NCBI GenBank assembly: GCA_963603005.1 | Contig: CAVCLW010000019.1 | Location: 8,896-32,895 of the forward strand | Length of the DNA stretch: 24,000 nt | Direction of reading: 5' to 3' | Source of the DNA: Escherichia coli | Lineage (GTDB): Bacteria; Bacillota; Negativicutes; Acidaminococcales; Acidaminococcaceae | Part shown: positions 19,274-24,000 of the stretch, piece by piece | Layout: the number at the start of each line of letters is the position of its first letter | Numbering within the stretch: position 1 is the stretch's first letter | Notes under the pieces: model-generated | What the model was told of the DNA's origin: nothing | Database searches by the model: none | What the model saw: only the letters and a program-made list of their open reading frames with translations | Made by a program: the position numbers and the translations under genes

Positions 19274-20027
19274 TTCGCAAAGAGTGCTTTTGGCAGATGA
19301 TGCGCTTGTTTTGCATGTAAAAAACTGGCAGACCGCAGATAAATATGCAGTCTGCTTTACGAAGGAGCATGGCAAGGTGCGCTTTATCGCCTATGGTGCC
19401 CGCTATGAAAAAAATGTACATGGCAGATTGCTGCAGCCTTTCGCCAATCTGCATATTGAGGTGCAGCAGGGGCAGAAGATAGACAAGCTGCGCAGCTGTG
19501 AGCTTTTGCAGATGCCGAAGTCGATGGATATGCAGCAGATGGCTTATGCGGCGGTGGCGTCGGAGCTGACTGCTGTGCTGACGGAGGACAGAGTGCCGCA
19601 GCAGGAGCTTTATGAAATGCTGGGCGCTGCCCTGGCGGCGCTGCTGCAGCGCAATCCGCGTCTGGTTGTTTTGTCCTATGCTATAAAATTGCTGGCGGCT
19701 ACGGGCTTTGCGCCGCAGCTTACGCATTGCGTGCACTGCTGTGAGGCTGTGACGGCGCAGGAGGATGCGTGGTTCAGTCCGCTGCAGGGCGGGCTTATCT
19801 GCAGCAGCTGCAGGAGCAGCTATAACGGTGACGGGTTGGAGCCGTGCAGTGCGGAAACACGTGAGCTGTGGCAGTGGCTGGCGCAGCTTGATTACGAGCA
19901 GCCGGCGCCCTTTAGGGTGCGAGGCGGTGCGCTGATGGAGCTGGAAAAAATTCTCTTCAAGTTTATCTTCTTTCAGACGGATAAGCCTTTGAACAGCTTA
20001 AACTTTTTGAGTCAGTTGCAGCTGTGA
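19266..20027 (+). CDS. recO: DNA repair protein RecO
   Basis: N-terminal OB-fold region and a zinc finger (CVHCC...CSSC). It takes the conserved era-recO position and overlaps corC by 8 nt. Confidence 0.88.
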   Translation: MNDSQRVLLADDALVLHVKNWQTADKYAVCFTKEHGKVRFIAYGARYEKNVHGRLLQPFANLHIEVQQGQKIDKLRSCELLQMPKSMDMQQMAYAAVASELTAVLTEDRVPQQELYEMLGAALAALLQRNPRLVVLSYAIKLLAATGFAPQLTHCVHCCEAVTAQEDAWFSPLQGGLICSSCRSSYNGDGLEPCSAETRELWQWLAQLDYEQPAPFRVRGGALMELEKILFKFIFFQTDKPLNSLNFLSQLQL

Positions 20028-20070
20028 GGCTGTGGCGAAGGCGCTTAATTGAAGAACGTAAAACGTAAAC

Positions 20071-20107
20071 AAAAACGCTAAAGGCTTTGAAGTTTTTAGC
20101 GTTTTTT
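20071..20107 (+). terminator. Rho-independent terminator after recO (A/T-rich stem, symmetric)
   Basis: AAAAACGCTAAA (20071-20082) pairs perfectly with TTTAGCGTTTTT (20095-20106). The 3' T-run merges into TTTTTT. Only a few GC pairs are present, so strength is moderate. Confidence 0.5.
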
Positions 20108-20112
20108 GCATG

Positions 20113-20140
20113 CAAAAAGTCCGCTCACATAGAGCGGACT
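20113..20140 (-). terminator. Rho-independent terminator of the MerR-family gene
   Basis: On the minus strand, AGTCCGCTC-TATGT-GAGCGGACT forms a 9-bp stem followed by TTTTT. It lies about 65 nt downstream of the minus-strand stop at 20205. Confidence 0.75.
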
Positions 20141-20204
20141 CAGTAAAGGCTATCTTAGACATTGTACGTAAATGTTTAGTTTTAAGCATAACATGGGAGA
20201 ATTT

Positions 20205-21065
20205 TTACGTCAGAGAAGTTGTATCCTTATCTTCAACTTTCAAAAAGATTTTGTTGACGTACTGTTCGCAGTCGCAGGAGAACCAATGATTTTCCAGAGG
20301 CAGGATATAAATATTGCCGACAGGCTCCAAATCATTGGTCTGCAGAAAGTGTTCGATGCGCTGGGATAATTTTTCAGCGTTCTCGCAAAAGGTACCCGAA
20401 AAAATAATTTCCAGATACAGACCGGCAGGCAACGTCATTTTGATGGACTGCCGATGCTTGGTGGCGCTGGTGACACAGGAAAAATATGCCTGTGAACGTT
20501 GAAATTCATGCTTTTTAAAAAAGCTTTCCTGGTCTAAAACCCAGCCTGCATGATTAGGCAAGGCTCCCTTGTGATGCGCGCGTCTTTGACCATGGCGTGC
20601 AAATTTGGTAATGCGGCTTTTGCCGTCATCACTTTCCGCAAGCGGCGTCAGACGCAGCAGACGGTCAGTTTGCCAGCTGAGCGTAATGTGACGGCAGGGG
20701 TTAAGCTCCTTGACGTGCATATCCTCCTTAATGCGCTCGATGGTGTCGCAGATTTCCTGATTGTTGTGGATGATTGCCTGACATTCCGCTGTTTTTTCCT
20801 GCAGCAGCTGCAGAAAATGCTCCTTGCTGCGGTCCTCCAGATATTTTTTGATATTGGCGATGCTGATATCCAGCGCACGCAGGTTGACGATTATCTCCAA
20901 ATCCAGAAATTGCTGGATAGAATAATTGCGGTAGCCATTTTCACTGATAAAGTCCGGTGAAAGCAGGTTAACCTTGTCGTAGTAGAGCAATGACTGCTTA
21001 GATATATTAAAAATTGCTGCCAGCTCGCCGGCAGTAAAGTACTTTCGCTTGTCTTTATTAATCAT
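20205..21065 (-). CDS. MerR-family transcriptional regulator with a C-terminal GyrI-like (BmrR-type) effector-binding domain
   Basis: The N-terminal wHTH (YFTAGELAAIFNISKQSLLYYDKVNLLSP...NGYRNYS) is followed by a coiled-coil dimerisation helix. The roughly 150-aa C-terminal domain (LPAGLYLEIIFSGTF...IYILPLENHW...IFLKVE) looks GyrI-like. An SD (GAGGAA) is present. The gene is divergent from the nifH-like operon. Confidence 0.85.
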   Translation of the reverse strand: MINKDKRKYFTAGELAAIFNISKQSLLYYDKVNLLSPDFISENGYRNYSIQQFLDLEIIVNLRALDISIANIKKYLEDRSKEHFLQLLQEKTAECQAIIHNNQEICDTIERIKEDMHVKELNPCRHITLSWQTDRLLRLTPLAESDDGKSRITKFARHGQRRAHHKGALPNHAGWVLDQESFFKKHEFQRSQAYFSCVTSATKHRQSIKMTLPAGLYLEIIFSGTFCENAEKLSQRIEHFLQTNDLEPVGNIYILPLENHWFSCDCEQYVNKIFLKVEDKDTTSLT

Positions 21066-21082
21066 AATTGTTCCTCATAAGC

Positions 21083-21113
21083 TTGACTATAATACTAGTA
21101 TATAGTTTAATAT
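21083..21113 (+). promoter_or_regulatory. MerR-type promoter/operator for the nifH-like operon
   Basis: -35 TTGACT (21083-88), a 19-bp spacer, and -10 TAATAT (21108-13). The spacer holds a perfect 10-bp palindrome ATACTAGTAT (21092-21101) nested in ACTATA-N9-TATAGT (21086-21106). The region is AT-rich, so alternative hexamers exist. Confidence 0.55.
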
Positions 21114-21148
21114 TAGAAGGAATAGTATCACTTCTTTTTATCTAGTAA

Positions 21149-21177
21149 ATTATATCATATTTTTCCTGCTATTTAAA
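21149..21177 (-). promoter_or_regulatory. Candidate promoter of the MerR-family gene
   Basis: The minus strand reads TTTAAA-17 bp-TATAAT with an extended -10 (TGATATAAT is the complement of 21149-21157). The resulting transcript would traverse the palindrome before reaching the regulator's start codon. Confidence 0.4.
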
Positions 21178-21213
21178 TAGGAGTTTTGAGTATAGGATGG
21201 AGGTCAATATTTA

Positions 21214-22020
21214 ATGAAGAAAATTGCGATTTATGGTAAGGGCGGTATCGGCAAATCTACGACAACATCAAATCTGTCGGCTGCATTCAGTGAGGATGGT
21301 CTTAAGGTTTGCCAAATAGGCTGCGATCCGAAAAATGATTCTACCAGACTTTTGCTGGGACGCATCTGCAGCCAGACTGTTCTGGACATGGTGCGCGATA
21401 ATGATGAGGTTGCGGCAGAGGATATTGTTCATACAGGCTACAATGGCATCAAATGCGTAGAGGCCGGCGGTCCTGAACCAGGCGTAGGCTGTGCGGGCCG
21501 TGGTATTATTGTGGCGCTGGAAAAGCTGCGTTCGCTGGAGGTGCTGACGGACGAGGACCTGATTATGTATGACGTTTTAGGTGACGTAGTTTGCGGCGGT
21601 TTCGCCGTGCCTATCCGTGAGGGCTATGCAACCGATATATATATTGTTTCTTCCGGCGAGCTGATGAGCCTTTATGCTGCCAACAACATTGCCAAGGGCG
21701 TAAAGCGTTTTGCTATGCGCGGCGGTGTGCGTTTGGGCGGTATCATCGGCAACGGTCGTAATACACCTAACGAGCAGCAGCTGCTGCAGGAATTCGCCAA
21801 ACGCCTGCACACTCAGCTGATTGCTTTCATTCCGCGTGATGTAATCGTCAATAAGGCGGAAAACAATCGCCAGACAGTGCTGCAGTATGCACCGGAAAGC
21901 GCTCAGGCCGGCGTTTACCGCAAGCTGGCGCATGATATTTGGCATAATGAAAACATGGCTATTCCTACGCCGATGAGCTTTGAGGAGCTTGAAAAGCTGG
22001 TGGCCGAATATGGCAATTAA
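21214..22020 (+). CDS. NifH/BchL/CfbC-family ATP-dependent [4Fe-4S] reductase component (nitrogenase iron protein-like)
   Basis: 268 aa. P-loop [11 protein letters not shown] and switch [10 protein letters not shown]. Cluster cysteines are in GVGCAGRGI and switch [14 protein letters not shown]. An SD (GGATGGAGG) lies upstream. Confidence 0.93.
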
Positions 22021-23299
22021 AACAAGACGCTTTTACAGTGCACGCAAAAGCTGTAGCTGCAGCATGCCTGGCGTGTGGCGCGCCGTTGCCTATATGAACG
22101 GAGCTGTGGTAGTTTTTCACAGCCCGCGTGCCTGTGCTCATGTAGCACGCACGATGGATATCAATTCTCAATACCGCACGCTTTCCGAAAATGAACGTGA
22201 GCAATGGGGCTCCGTGCCGCTGCTGAGCAGCCAGATGCAGGAAAAGGACGCAATTTTCGGCGGTGTGGCGCGTTTGGAAAAATGCCTGCGCTTTGCCATT
22301 GAAACATATAAACCCAAGTGCCTGATGATTGCCAATTCCTGCGTGGCCGGTGTTATCGGTGACGATGTGGAATCGGTGGCACGCGAGGTGGAGGAGGAAT
22401 ATAATGTTCCTATTCTGACTGTTGAATGCTGCGGTTTTTTGGGTGCGGAATATTATGACGGCTATTTTGAAATTACGCAGAAGCTGTTGGAGCGCTTTGT
22501 GAAGCCTTGCACCAAGCAAAAGGACAGCGTCCTGCTTTTAGGCGATAACGGTGGCCCGTGGGGGCATTACGCGAAAGAGGTTACGCGTATTTTGCAGGAA
22601 TTCGGCGTAGAGGTTATCGGTCAGTTCCCCGGCTATATGGCTATGGATGAGCTGGAAAAGGTGGCAGCCGCCGAATATGCGGTTGTGCTTGGCGGCCGCG
22701 GGCAGACGCATATCGGTTTGCGTAAGGTTGCAGAGCAGCTGCAGGAAAAATACGGCACACATTATCTGGCCGATATTTATCCTGTCGGCTGGCAGGAAAC
22801 GCAGGACTGGATTATCAGCATCGGCCGTATGCTGGGGCGTGAGCAGTTGGCACAGCAGGTGCTGAGGCTGGAGCAGCAGCGCTTAAGTGAGCAGCTGCAG
22901 CATTTTCTGCCGGTAACGGAAGGCAAGAAAACAGTGCTGTGCATCGGTCGTATTCTGAGATATTTTCATCCGGGGAATATCCTGCAGACTATCAAGCTTT
23001 TGCGCTTGAATCTTACCGGCATTATTCTCTTGGATTCCTATGACGGTGATGAGCGTGAAGCGATGCTGAAGGTTGTGCAGGAAAACAGCGATGTACCTGT
23101 TTATACTACGGCGGAGGGTGAAAAGCTGGTTGCAGAGGCAGATATCGTGTTGACAACGCACGAACTGCAGAATAAGGAGGCACGCCAGATTTTTCTGCCG
23201 ATGCTGCCGCAGGTTGCCGTTGCCGGTGAGGTCAAGATGATGCAGGGAATTTATCAGAGCCTGTGCAGCAGGCTGAAGGGAGGCGTGCGCTATGTCTGA
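22010..23299 (+). CDS. Nitrogenase component-1-type oxidoreductase, NifD/NifE-like subunit
   Basis: 429 aa, with an ATG overlapping the nifH-like gene by 11 nt. By-eye alignment to NifD places [42 protein letters not shown] and VECCGF. The track's 21980 start is rejected as an in-gene extension. Confidence 0.85.
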
Positions 23300-24000
23300 A
23301 AAACAAGGCTGGGGCAATATCTGCGAGCGTGTGGATACCTGTGCGCTGACAGGTGCAGGTGCCTTTTTCGCTGCTATTGATAAGAGTGAGGTTTTGATTA
23401 ACGGACCATTGTGGTGTTATTTTTATGCTCTTCGACATCTGGAAAAGGCGCGTCCCGATATGTATACGCGCTTTTACGGCTCTCAGCCTGATAATAACGC
23501 TGTTATTTATGGCTCCGAGGAATATGTAACGCAGGAGCTGCAGCGTATGCTGGAGGATGGTCATAAGCCTTCGGTGCTGCTTTTGGAAAGCAGCTGCTCG
23601 CTGAGCTTAATCGGTGATGATTTGGCAGGCATGGCGCGCAAGCTGGAGCTGCCGTTCCCTGTGGTTACATTGGATAGCGGCGGTATGGTCGGCGGCTTTG
23701 CTGCAGGCTACGCCAAGGCTGCCAAGAAGCTGTTTGCGCAGCTGTTGCCGCAGACTGCGACAGCAAAGCCTTTGGCAGTGAATATTTTAGGACAATCGGA
23801 ATTTTATCTGCAGGGTGCTGCCGATACGCAGGAATTAAAACGCTTACTGCAGCTGGCAGGCTATGAGGTGCTGTGCACTCCCGGCTGCGAATGCACGCTG
23901 GAGGAGCTGCAGAAGCTTCCGGAGGCTTCACTGAACATTGTTACCAATGCGGAGCTGGGTTTGCCGCTGGCTGAATATCTGCAGAAAAAATACGGCACGC
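23292..24000 (+). CDS. Nitrogenase component-1-type oxidoreductase, NifK/NifN-like subunit (3'-partial, runs off the window)
   Basis: I translated this by hand and the frame stays open from ATG 23292 to nt 24000 (236 codons). An SD (AAGGGAGG) lies 8 nt upstream, and the start overlaps the preceding gene by 8 nt. Motifs are DTCALTGA, NGPLWCYFY and ESSCSLSLIGDDL. It is absent from the supplied ORF track because no stop falls within the window. Confidence 0.8.
   Translation, partial: MSEKQGWGNICERVDTCALTGAGAFFAAIDKSEVLINGPLWCYFYALRHLEKARPDMYTRFYGSQPDNNAVIYGSEEYVTQELQRMLEDGHKPSVLLLESSCSLSLIGDDLAGMARKLELPFPVVTLDSGGMVGGFAAGYAKAAKKLFAQLLPQTATAKPLAVNILGQSEFYLQGAADTQELKRLLQLAGYEVLCTPGCECTLEELQKLPEASLNIVTNAELGLPLAEYLQKKYGT

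Follow-up and report, generated by a model that had tools for sequence, protein, structure and literature searches.

A nitrogenase-like reductase operon of gut Phascolarctobacterium with a CobN-type chelatase gene and a proposed role in cobamide supply

Few enzymes of the nitrogen-fixation-like (NFL) group have an assigned role: dark-operative protochlorophyllide oxidoreductase (DPOR) and chlorophyllide oxidoreductase (COR) serve chlorophyll, CfbCD serves coenzyme F430, and methylthio-alkane reductase (MAR) and ISR cleave organosulfur compounds. Beyond links to sulfur in Group IV and to tetrapyrroles in Group VI, gene context has been of little help in assigning others (PMC13474568); for the Group VI enzymes of Elusimicrobia, a part in the synthesis of a tetrapyrrole cofactor was proposed (bioRxiv 10.1101/765248). 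Here, we analyze a stretch of 24,000 nucleotides (nt; the window) from Phascolarctobacterium succinatutens that contains, at 20205-24000, the first part of an operon for an NFL reductase, NflHDK, together with a divergent merR gene; the window cuts the cluster mid-operon at nt 24000. With about 100 related loci examined for gene context, this unusually rich and coherent setting associates a large unassigned NFL clade with genes for cobalt chelatases, with CbiZ, and with B12 riboswitches. Altogether, we lean toward a model whereby Nfl is a tetrapyrrole- or corrinoid-directed NFL enzyme in cobamide supply. A corrinoid-related substrate is the best-supported class because of the riboswitches, the cobaltochelatase scores of CobN and ChlI/ChlD, and CbiZ.

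The three subunits of the reductase are encoded as follows.

21199-21203, plus strand: Shine-Dalgarno sequence GGAGG of nflH, 10 nt ahead of the ATG, read from the sequence
21214-22020, plus strand: nflH, 268 amino acids (aa), NifH-family ATPase and [4Fe-4S] electron donor
22010-23299, plus strand: nflD, 429 aa, alpha-type component-1 subunit, with its ATG at 22010
23292-24000 (runs off the window), plus strand: nflK, beta-type component-1 subunit, with the first 236 of its 431 aa inside the window

A preliminary description of the window had read these genes as a nitrogenase-like H+DK system that is not a nitrogenase, and its coordinates for the NifH-family ATPase, the 429-aa D reading frame, the K reading frame running off the window, and the overlaps of 11 nt (nflH/nflD) and 8 nt (nflD/nflK) agree with those found here. 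The overlaps predict that H, D, and K are translationally coupled, as that description had proposed, and because H and D overlap there is no room between them for the nifI/glnB genes that it had already reported missing. The PF00142 and PF00148 scans that it suggested gave 365 bits (E 3e-109) for NflH and 177 and 157 bits for NflD and NflK, respectively; the P-loop, the switch regions, the DVVCGGF motif, and both [4Fe-4S] cysteines of NflH are intact. Since the Pfam expectation values (E) of the cluster proteins lie between 1e-34 and 1e-109, chance is excluded for these family matches, and the PF00142 match of H, the PF00148 matches of D and K, and the motifs place Nfl in the nitrogenase superfamily. 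No curated cut-off for Nif/Vnf/Anf, DPOR, COR, or CfbCD is reached by H, D, or K. The scores of NflH are 392.9 bits with TIGR01287, the nifH equivalog (cut-off 394.35), 389.6 with CfbC (402), 225 with BchL (345), and 177 with BchX (331), and its best match in the PDB is NifH of C. pasteurianum at 328 bits, with MarH at 296. For D and K, the scores on all Nif/Vnf/Anf/Bch/Cfb models stay at 20-121 bits, far below the cut-offs, which range from 268 to 874. Specifically, NflD scores 102 against 654 on nifD, 77 against 823 on VnfD, and 63 against 874 on AnfD; NflK is under the reporting threshold on nifK and scores 34 against 854 on anfK; and component 1 scores 48 against 420 on BchN, 65-96 against 490 on BchB, 44 against 529 on BchZ, and 41 against 268 on CfbD (TIGR03282).

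The cysteine inventory of component 1 is equally consistent across the family. C17, C42, and C111 of NflD are invariant in alignments of 26 and 46 sequences, and C11, C17, C42, and C102 of NflK are invariant in an 18-locus alignment. From an alignment with MarD and the residue numbering of the Azotobacter vinelandii proteins, we take C17/C42/C111 of NflD to be C62/C88/C154 of NifD and C17/C42/C102 of NflK to be C70/C95/C153 of NifK, with C11 of NflK as an extra cysteine beyond the P-cluster set. The six P-cluster cysteines are invariant family-wide, even in a clade that is only ~28% identical. NflD has no counterpart to Cys275 and His442, the ligands of the iron-molybdenum cofactor (FeMo-co), and the 26- and 46-sequence alignments contain no conserved Cys or His at these positions. 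The 'GFCY' of MarD (TVGFCYTLS) aligns to 'LGGRGQ' of NflD, which leaves the FeMo-co/L-cluster position without its cysteine. From these alignments, we infer a cofactor-less active site. The closest solved relative of NflD is MarD (9d9u/9fmg), both by phmmer (E 5e-28) and by Foldseek with an AlphaFold2 model of mean pLDDT 86.5 (E 3e-23, template-modeling (TM) score 0.70); NifD and NifE come after it, and BchN is not among the top 50 matches. Among 1.84 billion representatives searched, the D family stands out as a distinct tier (240-436 bits, ~430 aa), with related tiers at ~190 and ~150 bits, and none of the nine sampled nearest 50%-identity relatives of D (P0193-P0222) reaches a curated cut-off; these are unlabelled NFL proteins and not canonical nitrogenases. 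The equivalog scores, the cluster ligands, and the unlabelled nearest relatives together lead us to regard Nfl as an apparently undescribed NFL clade with a putative P-type cluster. It is a large one: the 90%-identity cluster of the D protein alone has 5,773 member sequences.

The remainder of the operon was read from identical contigs, and the full-length nflK (431 aa) was recovered from contigs L001-L006. The operon spans ~10 kb and has seven genes in the order nflH-nflD-nflK-binding protein-permease-cobN-radical S-adenosylmethionine (SAM) enzyme, with successive gaps of -11, -8, +7, +16, +15, and -11 nt and thus none above 16 nt. The binding protein, encoded 7 nt after nflK, is a Peripla_BP_2 lipoprotein of the BtuF/FecB type, and the FecCD permease has BtuC as its best match (298 bits). 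CobN (1239 aa) scores 940 bits on TIGR02257, above the cut-off of 822, and its relatives in the PDB are CobN of M. tuberculosis (720 bits), ChlH (549), and HmuS (400); it has no signal peptide and is predicted to be cytoplasmic. The radical-SAM/SPASM enzyme (341 aa) has CteB, PapB, SCIFF, and anSME as best matches and is missing the peptide-recognition domain; it gives no match to NifB and is neither MarB- nor BciD-like. About 220 nt past its gene follow a CN-hydrolase gene and then a TonB-dependent receptor gene. Within 10 kb of the cluster there is no nifB, nifE, nifN, or nifV, and the SPASM-type enzyme is the sole radical-SAM enzyme there. Thus, the transporter and radical-SAM genes for which the preliminary description had suggested looking downstream are present, the latter not of the NifB/MarB-like kind, and its statement that nifE/N/B are missing holds for 10 kb downstream. 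Its proposal of a probably small organic substrate is not borne out: the operon continues with the BtuF/FecB-type binding protein, the BtuC-like permease, CobN, and the SPASM-type enzyme, and relatives add ChlI/ChlD, CbiZ, and cobalamin riboswitches, all of which points to a tetrapyrrole, most likely a corrinoid. A role of the radical-SAM enzyme as a NifB analog that builds a complex cluster was set aside, as D and K lack ligands for such a cluster.

The core nflHDK-binding protein-(permease)-cobN-radical-SAM is kept in loci with D identities of 41-100%. Every CobN-containing lineage with more than 40% D identity has the lipoprotein-type binding protein within its core operon; the protein is repositioned in a clade with 28-32% D identity, in which MerR and a 106-aa protein precede the order CbiZ-CobN-NflD-NflK-(TonB-binding protein)-ChlI-ChlD-NflH; a Dialister locus has the same gene set as this clade. 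In several lineages, chlI and chlD, for the AAA+ and AAA+/VWA subunits, directly follow the radical-SAM gene. ChlI scores 519 bits on a 'putative cobaltochelatase' model, and ChlI/ChlD adjoin in L024, L062, L089, L091, L094, L099/L103/L106, and L107/L108; L099/L103/L106 have a compact operon, HDK-binding protein-CobN-radical-SAM-ChlI-ChlD, without a permease. CbiZ (PF01955, the adenosylcobinamide amidohydrolase family) is recurrent, and in L107/L108 it has one base in common with the start of cobN. Other recurrent accessories are CN-hydrolase, extra binding proteins, BtuB-like receptors, an ATP-binding cassette (ABC) ATPase, and AP_endonuc_2 proteins, which at the level of the Pfam family resemble the superfamily of the cobamide-remodeling enzyme CbiR (PMC7733943). 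Three CobN-less loci (L095/L098/L101) have as divergent neighbors a binding protein and a CbiK chelatase with a signal peptide (271 bits; L098 7814-8803, minus strand). We take the latter to resemble the periplasmic, heme-linked proteins CbiK-P and IhtB. Because CobN, or CbiK where CobN is missing, adjoins it, Nfl is repeatedly linked to tetrapyrrole chelatases. Chance adjacency of nflHDK and cobN was considered and set aside in view of the overlapping genes and of synteny down to ~28% D identity.

A direct link to B12 comes from regulatory RNAs in relatives. Full-length cobalamin riboswitches (RF00174, 101-109 bits) lie directly upstream of nflH at L057 8905-9079 and L073 8905-9081, and in L057 the aptamer is followed by a terminator hairpin ahead of the ribosome-binding site of nflH. 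Further riboswitches precede (TonB-binding protein-)chlI-chlD-nflH at L107 12655-12831 and L108 12657-12833. By standard riboswitch-regulon logic, this places the operon in cobamide biosynthesis, salvage, or transport. Neither L057, L073, nor the loci syntenic with them have a MerR gene within the locus, and a MerR gene accompanies the riboswitches in L107/L108; where merR and nflH are divergent, as in the window, no riboswitch is present. Rfam found no cobalamin riboswitch in L001, L023-L026, L058, L094, L096, L098, or L099. A B12-independent isozyme within a riboswitch regulon was considered as an explanation for Nfl and set aside, as nflHDK is co-operonic with CobN/ChlID. In L107 (3353-3532) and L108 (3361-3540), an additional riboswitch on the minus strand precedes genes for a tetratricopeptide repeat protein and a short-chain dehydrogenase.

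Among described systems, MarHDK (Group IV-C; 9FMG, 9D9U) shares with Nfl the H+D+K composition, the full set of six P-cluster cysteines, and a clustered radical-SAM gene. It differs from Nfl in that identity is ~23%, NflD lacks the cysteine at the 'GFCY' L-cluster position, the radical-SAM enzyme of Nfl is SPASM/anSME-like, and the context is one of chelatase and corrinoid genes rather than sulfur metabolism. DPOR (BchLNB) and COR (BchXYZ), both of Group V, and CfbCD (Group IV-B) resemble Nfl in the route proposed here, from an H dimer via an Fe-S cluster at the subunit interface to a macrocycle, in having neither a complex cofactor nor NifB, and in the chelatase beside the reductase (BchH/I/D; CfbA). 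However, sequence similarity to these enzymes is far lower, Nfl occurs in gut bacteria that are neither phototrophic nor methanogenic, and its six cysteines, including all three of NflK, contrast with three Cys and one Asp in DPOR and a 2 + 2 set in CfbD, which moreover is homomeric and has no K, whereas Nfl has both D and K. With the Group VI enzymes, Nfl has in common a tetrapyrrole role suggested by gene context, radical-SAM neighbors, and the lack of both NifB and FeMo-co ligands; in contrast to Group VI, where NflH is ~40% identical to NifH and D/K keep at most four of the six P-cluster cysteines (PMC13474568), the H protein studied here nearly passes the nifH model (393 bits) and the six cysteines are invariant, and Group VI is not reported to occur together with CobN, ChlID, CbiZ, or riboswitches. 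On the side of the chelatases, the 1239-aa protein resembles the class I cobaltochelatases CobNST and CobN-ChlID in that it passes the CobN model and ChlI/ChlD adjoin it in relatives, and the operon resembles those of HmuS and BtuS as an uptake-type cluster in a gut anaerobe; HmuS differs in being periplasmic, membrane-anchored, and ATP-independent, whereas the operon's CobN appears cytoplasmic and is nearer to true CobN. We know of no CobN system with a nitrogenase-like reductase.

In our model of Nfl function, a ligand in the GyrI-like pocket of MerR would realign a promoter with a 19-bp spacer and turn the operon on, and in sister lineages the cobalamin riboswitch would silence the operon under ample B12. 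A macrocycle would enter through a BtuB-like receptor, the BtuF/FecB-type lipoprotein, and the BtuC-like permease. CobN would hold this macrocycle and insert cobalt, or possibly remove it, together with ChlI/ChlD where relatives encode them in their operons. Upon ATP hydrolysis, the NflH dimer would pass low-potential electrons from its [4Fe-4S] cluster to the six-cysteine P-type cluster at the D/K interface and, without FeMo-co or an L-cluster, from there to the bound macrocycle (ring C=C or C=N bonds) or to its cobalt (Co(II) to Co(I)); this electron route is modeled on DPOR, COR, and CfbCD. The radical-SAM enzyme may alter the ring or one of its side chains. As to the tetrapyrrole, a corrinoid or a corrinoid precursor is most likely, possibly one imported by the co-encoded transporter. 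We tentatively propose that NflHDK may be the first NFL enzyme of cobamide metabolism, acting with CobN-ChlID on a corrinoid or on a scavenged, oxidized tetrapyrrole precursor. Each individual reaction is much less likely than the general model. Candidates are the reduction of a ring double bond by analogy to DPOR, COR, CfbCD, and CbiJ; the reduction of uroporphyrin III or of a factor-type isobacteriochlorin; the reduction of Co(II) to Co(I) in cobyrinic-acid-type intermediates after chelation, by analogy to CobR; and a reductive loosening of the ring for cobalt extraction or exchange. Uroporphyrin III is present in stool, which is relevant to 'tetrapyrrole precursor salvagers' (PMC6461909).

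Several observations weigh against a corrinoid-directed role. The B12 link rests on relatives, because the locus of this strain has neither a riboswitch nor CbiZ nor ChlI/ChlD: within 10 kb it contains no CbiZ, ChlI/ChlD, or ABC ATPase, and the window contains no riboswitch or other RNA family, either at the Rfam gathering threshold or in an E-value scan of 19900-21400. The binding protein resembles binders of siderophores, citrate, and heme as much as BtuF, and the TonB receptors, whose best match over their full length is the B12-receptor model (188 bits, below the cut-off), score nearly equally on the heme-receptor model (182 bits). The Btu-like genes could share a B12 regulon with Nfl and CobN without supplying the substrate, and a whole corrinoid may not fit into the GyrI-like pocket. 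The tetrapyrrole enzymes BchN, BchY, and CfbD are more distant from NflD in both sequence and fold than MarD and NifD are. Finally, IsrD also lacks Cys275 and His442 and acts on a small sulfonate (PMC13474568), so that the missing ligands are no proof of a tetrapyrrole substrate.

If the operon salvaged heme or porphyrin for iron, heme would be imported, CobN would be an HmuS-like de-chelatase that frees the iron, the radical-SAM enzyme would trim the porphyrin, and NflHDK would reduce heme or the leftover porphyrin, for instance at the vinyl groups or from porphyrin to porphyrinogen. CobN-family heme de-chelatases do occur in gut Bacteroides, namely HmuS (PMC12583661) and BtuS (PMC6460266), HmuS is detectably homologous to the operon's CobN at 400 bits, the receptor reaches its 182 bits on the heme-receptor model, the binding protein weakly matches IsdE, and the CobN-less variant adjoins a periplasmic CbiK. 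We nevertheless consider heme salvage unlikely: cobalamin riboswitches and not iron regulation govern the operon in relatives (a Fur box was not searched for), heme offers no substrate to CbiZ, which works on corrinoid amides, CobN appears cytoplasmic, passes the CobN cut-off, and resembles true CobN more than HmuS, and relatives carry the ATP-dependent ChlI/ChlD whereas HmuS is ATP-independent (PMC12583661). A fairly unlikely alternative is that the operon makes a new reduced, F430-like metallo-tetrapyrrole de novo from the cell's own precursors, with CobN/ChlID inserting the metal, NflHDK reducing the ring, the radical-SAM enzyme tailoring the product, and the transporter genes as co-regulated passengers, or, in a variant, that Nfl, CobN, and the radical-SAM enzyme substitute for anaerobic B12 steps such as those of CbiK or CbiJ. 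The set of a chelatase, an NFL reductase, and a tailoring enzyme parallels CfbA-E (PMC13474568), two ATP-costly machines fit biosynthesis more than catabolism, the compact operon of L099/L103/L106 does without a permease, and riboswitch control is compatible with a B12-biosynthetic step. However, the binding protein is embedded in the core operon of all the CobN-containing lineages above 40% D identity and is present also in the 28-32% clade, and CbiZ, the CbiR-like AP_endonuc_2 proteins, the multiple binding proteins, and the TonB receptors indicate salvage.

The small organic substrate of the preliminary description would correspond to a Mar/Isr-like reductase acting on, for example, an organosulfur compound that MerR senses. 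The kinship of NflD with MarD in sequence and fold, the six P-cluster cysteines retained as in MAR, a radical-SAM partner as in the 'BHDK' sets of Mar, Isr, and Nfa, the lack of Cys275 and His442 in IsrD as well (PMC13474568), and the fact that BmrR-type regulators sense small planar molecules all agree with such an enzyme. We regard it as very unlikely, as the constant partners of Nfl are CobN and a siderophore/B12-type binding protein, B12 riboswitches govern the operon in relatives, the radical-SAM enzyme is neither NifB/MarB-like nor BciD-like, and genes for sulfur metabolism or sulfonate transport are missing from all loci for which gene content was tabulated or scanned. A cryptic or minimal N2-fixing nitrogenase, comparable to Nfa of Group IV-A, is effectively refuted: even though NflH falls only 1.5 bits short of the nifH equivalog cut-off and the P-cluster cysteines are present, NflD lacks the FeMo-co ligands and scores 102 bits against a nifD cut-off of 654, no nifB, nifE, nifN, or nifV lies within 10 kb, and no glnB/nifI separates the overlapping H and D genes.

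The operon faces its putative regulator across an intergenic region with two promoters.

20205-21065, minus strand: merR, 286 aa, with a MerR helix-turn-helix, a coiled coil, and a C-terminal GyrI-like ligand domain
21083-21113, plus strand: MerR-type nfl promoter, with -35 TTGACT at 21083-21088, a 19-nt spacer, and -10 TAATAT at 21108-21113, read from the sequence
21149-21177, minus strand: probable merR promoter, TTTAAA-17 nt-TATAAT with a TG extension, 10 of 12 matches in a promoter scan

The MerR protein matches the Pfam families MerR_1 (42 bits) and MerR (33 bits), and Cass2/GyrI-like at 22.4 bits, below the cut-off of 27 bits. The top Foldseek match of its AlphaFold2 model (pLDDT 84.7) is full-length BmrR (3q1m; E 1.7e-16, TM 0.62-0.65), followed by EcmrR, BrlR, and GyrI/SbmC. 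On this model, the protein is a BmrR-type MerR regulator with a GyrI-like domain, and it is predicted to sense a ligand. An over-long 19-bp spacer with a dyad is a hallmark of MerR-activated promoters. The spacer of the nfl promoter carries the dyad ACTATA...TATAGT, and the layout TTGAC(N)-19 nt-TA(N3)T, with a conserved spacer, is present in all ten merR-nflH intergenic regions checked (D identity 45-100%), supporting a promoter toward nflH under MerR control and a putative operator within it. The divergent MerR/GyrI-like regulator reported in the preliminary description is thus corroborated by the Pfam matches, the BmrR fold, and the promoter. The -10 region of the merR promoter (plus-strand TAGTAAATTATATCA, window 21145-21159) reads on the minus strand as an extended -10, TGATATAAT, and recurs in five of ten aligned intergenic regions, with weaker versions in others; this site is probably the merR promoter and would overlap the start of the nflH transcript, and the leftward merR transcript would traverse the MerR operator. 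BmrR, EcmrR, and BrlR resemble this MerR protein in full-length fold, in the divergent orientation of the genes, and in a promoter with a dyad inside a 19-bp spacer; they differ in that identity is 18-21% and that the known members govern drug efflux whereas the target here is a metabolic operon. Distant MerR homologs (42-44% identical) adjoin radical-SAM-binding protein-permease-CobN-CbiZ genes, or a lone TonB receptor, without Nfl nearby. Because these homologs occur without Nfl, MerR appears to serve the whole uptake/CobN system and not Nfl specifically. The pairing of reductase and regulator, for which the preliminary description knew of no precedent, is lineage-specific, as L057 and L073 have a riboswitch without MerR and the distant MerR homologs have no Nfl. 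The replacement of the riboswitch by a BmrR-type activator offers a handle, in that the ligand of MerR probably reveals the substrate class.

Taken together, Nfl is an NFL reductase in a new pathway context and with a new regulation that probably acts on a tetrapyrrole. Phascolarctobacterium and Dialister convert succinate to propionate in a B12-dependent manner. A new route of B12 supply in these bacteria would bear on gut cobamide ecology and on propionate production; if the model is correct, it would amount to an unrecognized route to B12 for abundant gut succinate-to-propionate bacteria and could account for how 'tetrapyrrole precursor salvagers' exploit the supply in the gut (PMC6461909). 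In the literature searched, no paper ties an NFL enzyme to CobN, a cobaltochelatase, CbiZ, B12 riboswitches, or Phascolarctobacterium, save for a remark on odd 'nifD' reads (PMC8597730), and no such clade is mentioned in a 2026 review of NFL enzymes (PMC13474568). A practical consequence is that nfl-type genes inflate counts of nitrogen fixers based on nifH/nifD in gut metagenomes (PMC8597730).

Many contigs from the human gut encode an identical D protein, which is 99% identical to that of P. succinatutens YIT 12067, the species to which the window belongs. Upstream of the cluster, the window carries housekeeping genes (ftsZ, nrdR, phoH, ybeY, era, recO, and others), with recO ending at 20027, and only two terminators separate recO and merR.

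20072-20106 (approximate), plus strand: intrinsic terminator closing the recO-side housekeeping block; 14-bp stem and U-run, -17.9 kcal/mol, z -3.8 versus shuffles (RNA fold)
20111-20137, minus strand: intrinsic terminator of merR; hairpin GAGUCCGCUC-UAUGU-GAGCGGACUU followed by UUUU, 10 bp, -18 kcal/mol, z -4.9 (RNA fold)

The terminators that the preliminary description had placed at the end of the housekeeping block are borne out by these two hairpins. A simple promoter and terminator scan missed both of them as well as the promoter with the 19-bp spacer, and all three were recovered via direct reading and folding. The left border varies within the species group: strains with D identities of 98-99% have CbiZ and a gene for a 105-aa protein directly upstream of merR (window 20028-20204 compared with L007 6668-8149 and L009 6239-7722). 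Five cluster-bearing contigs with D identities of 67-97% (L016, L018, L019, L020, L022) are filed under metagenome-assembled genomes of Bacteroides sp., Segatella copri, Bacteroidaceae, Ruminococcus intestinalis, and Duodenibacillus, for which contamination during binning is a more likely explanation than horizontal transfer.

The transport genes also vary. In the operon of this strain (L001 12586-14611), a binding protein and a permease are encoded without an ABC ATPase; in relatives, the ATPase gene lies between the permease gene and cobN or in a second transporter set upstream (L022 6565-7398; L057 8119-8901). Either an ATPase encoded at another site serves this importer, or the importer is incomplete. 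The TonB receptor is a 134-aa fragment on L001 (20548-20952), followed by a PDDEXK_2 transposase-like gene, and has 530-640 aa on otherwise identical contigs (L003 20520-21290+, L004 20555-21290+), suggesting that it is disrupted or rearranged in some strains. In the riboswitch-controlled chlI-chlD-nflH unit, a PF27665 (UCP028175) protein is encoded directly after nflH (L107 19801-20469; L108 16962-17540). In most lineages, though not in the window, a conserved protein of ~105 aa with the motif HP.FE.PTDPHGK.RYESA.KHV adjoins merR or the operon; its only Pfam match is a sub-threshold one to CMD/AhpD-like proteins, and it was located at the following positions.

L026 7871-8188: ~105-aa protein
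L062 7818-8156: ~105-aa protein
L094 7794-8123: ~105-aa protein
L107 4670-4990: ~105-aa protein
L111 10031-10351: ~105-aa protein
L007 7844-8149: ~105-aa protein

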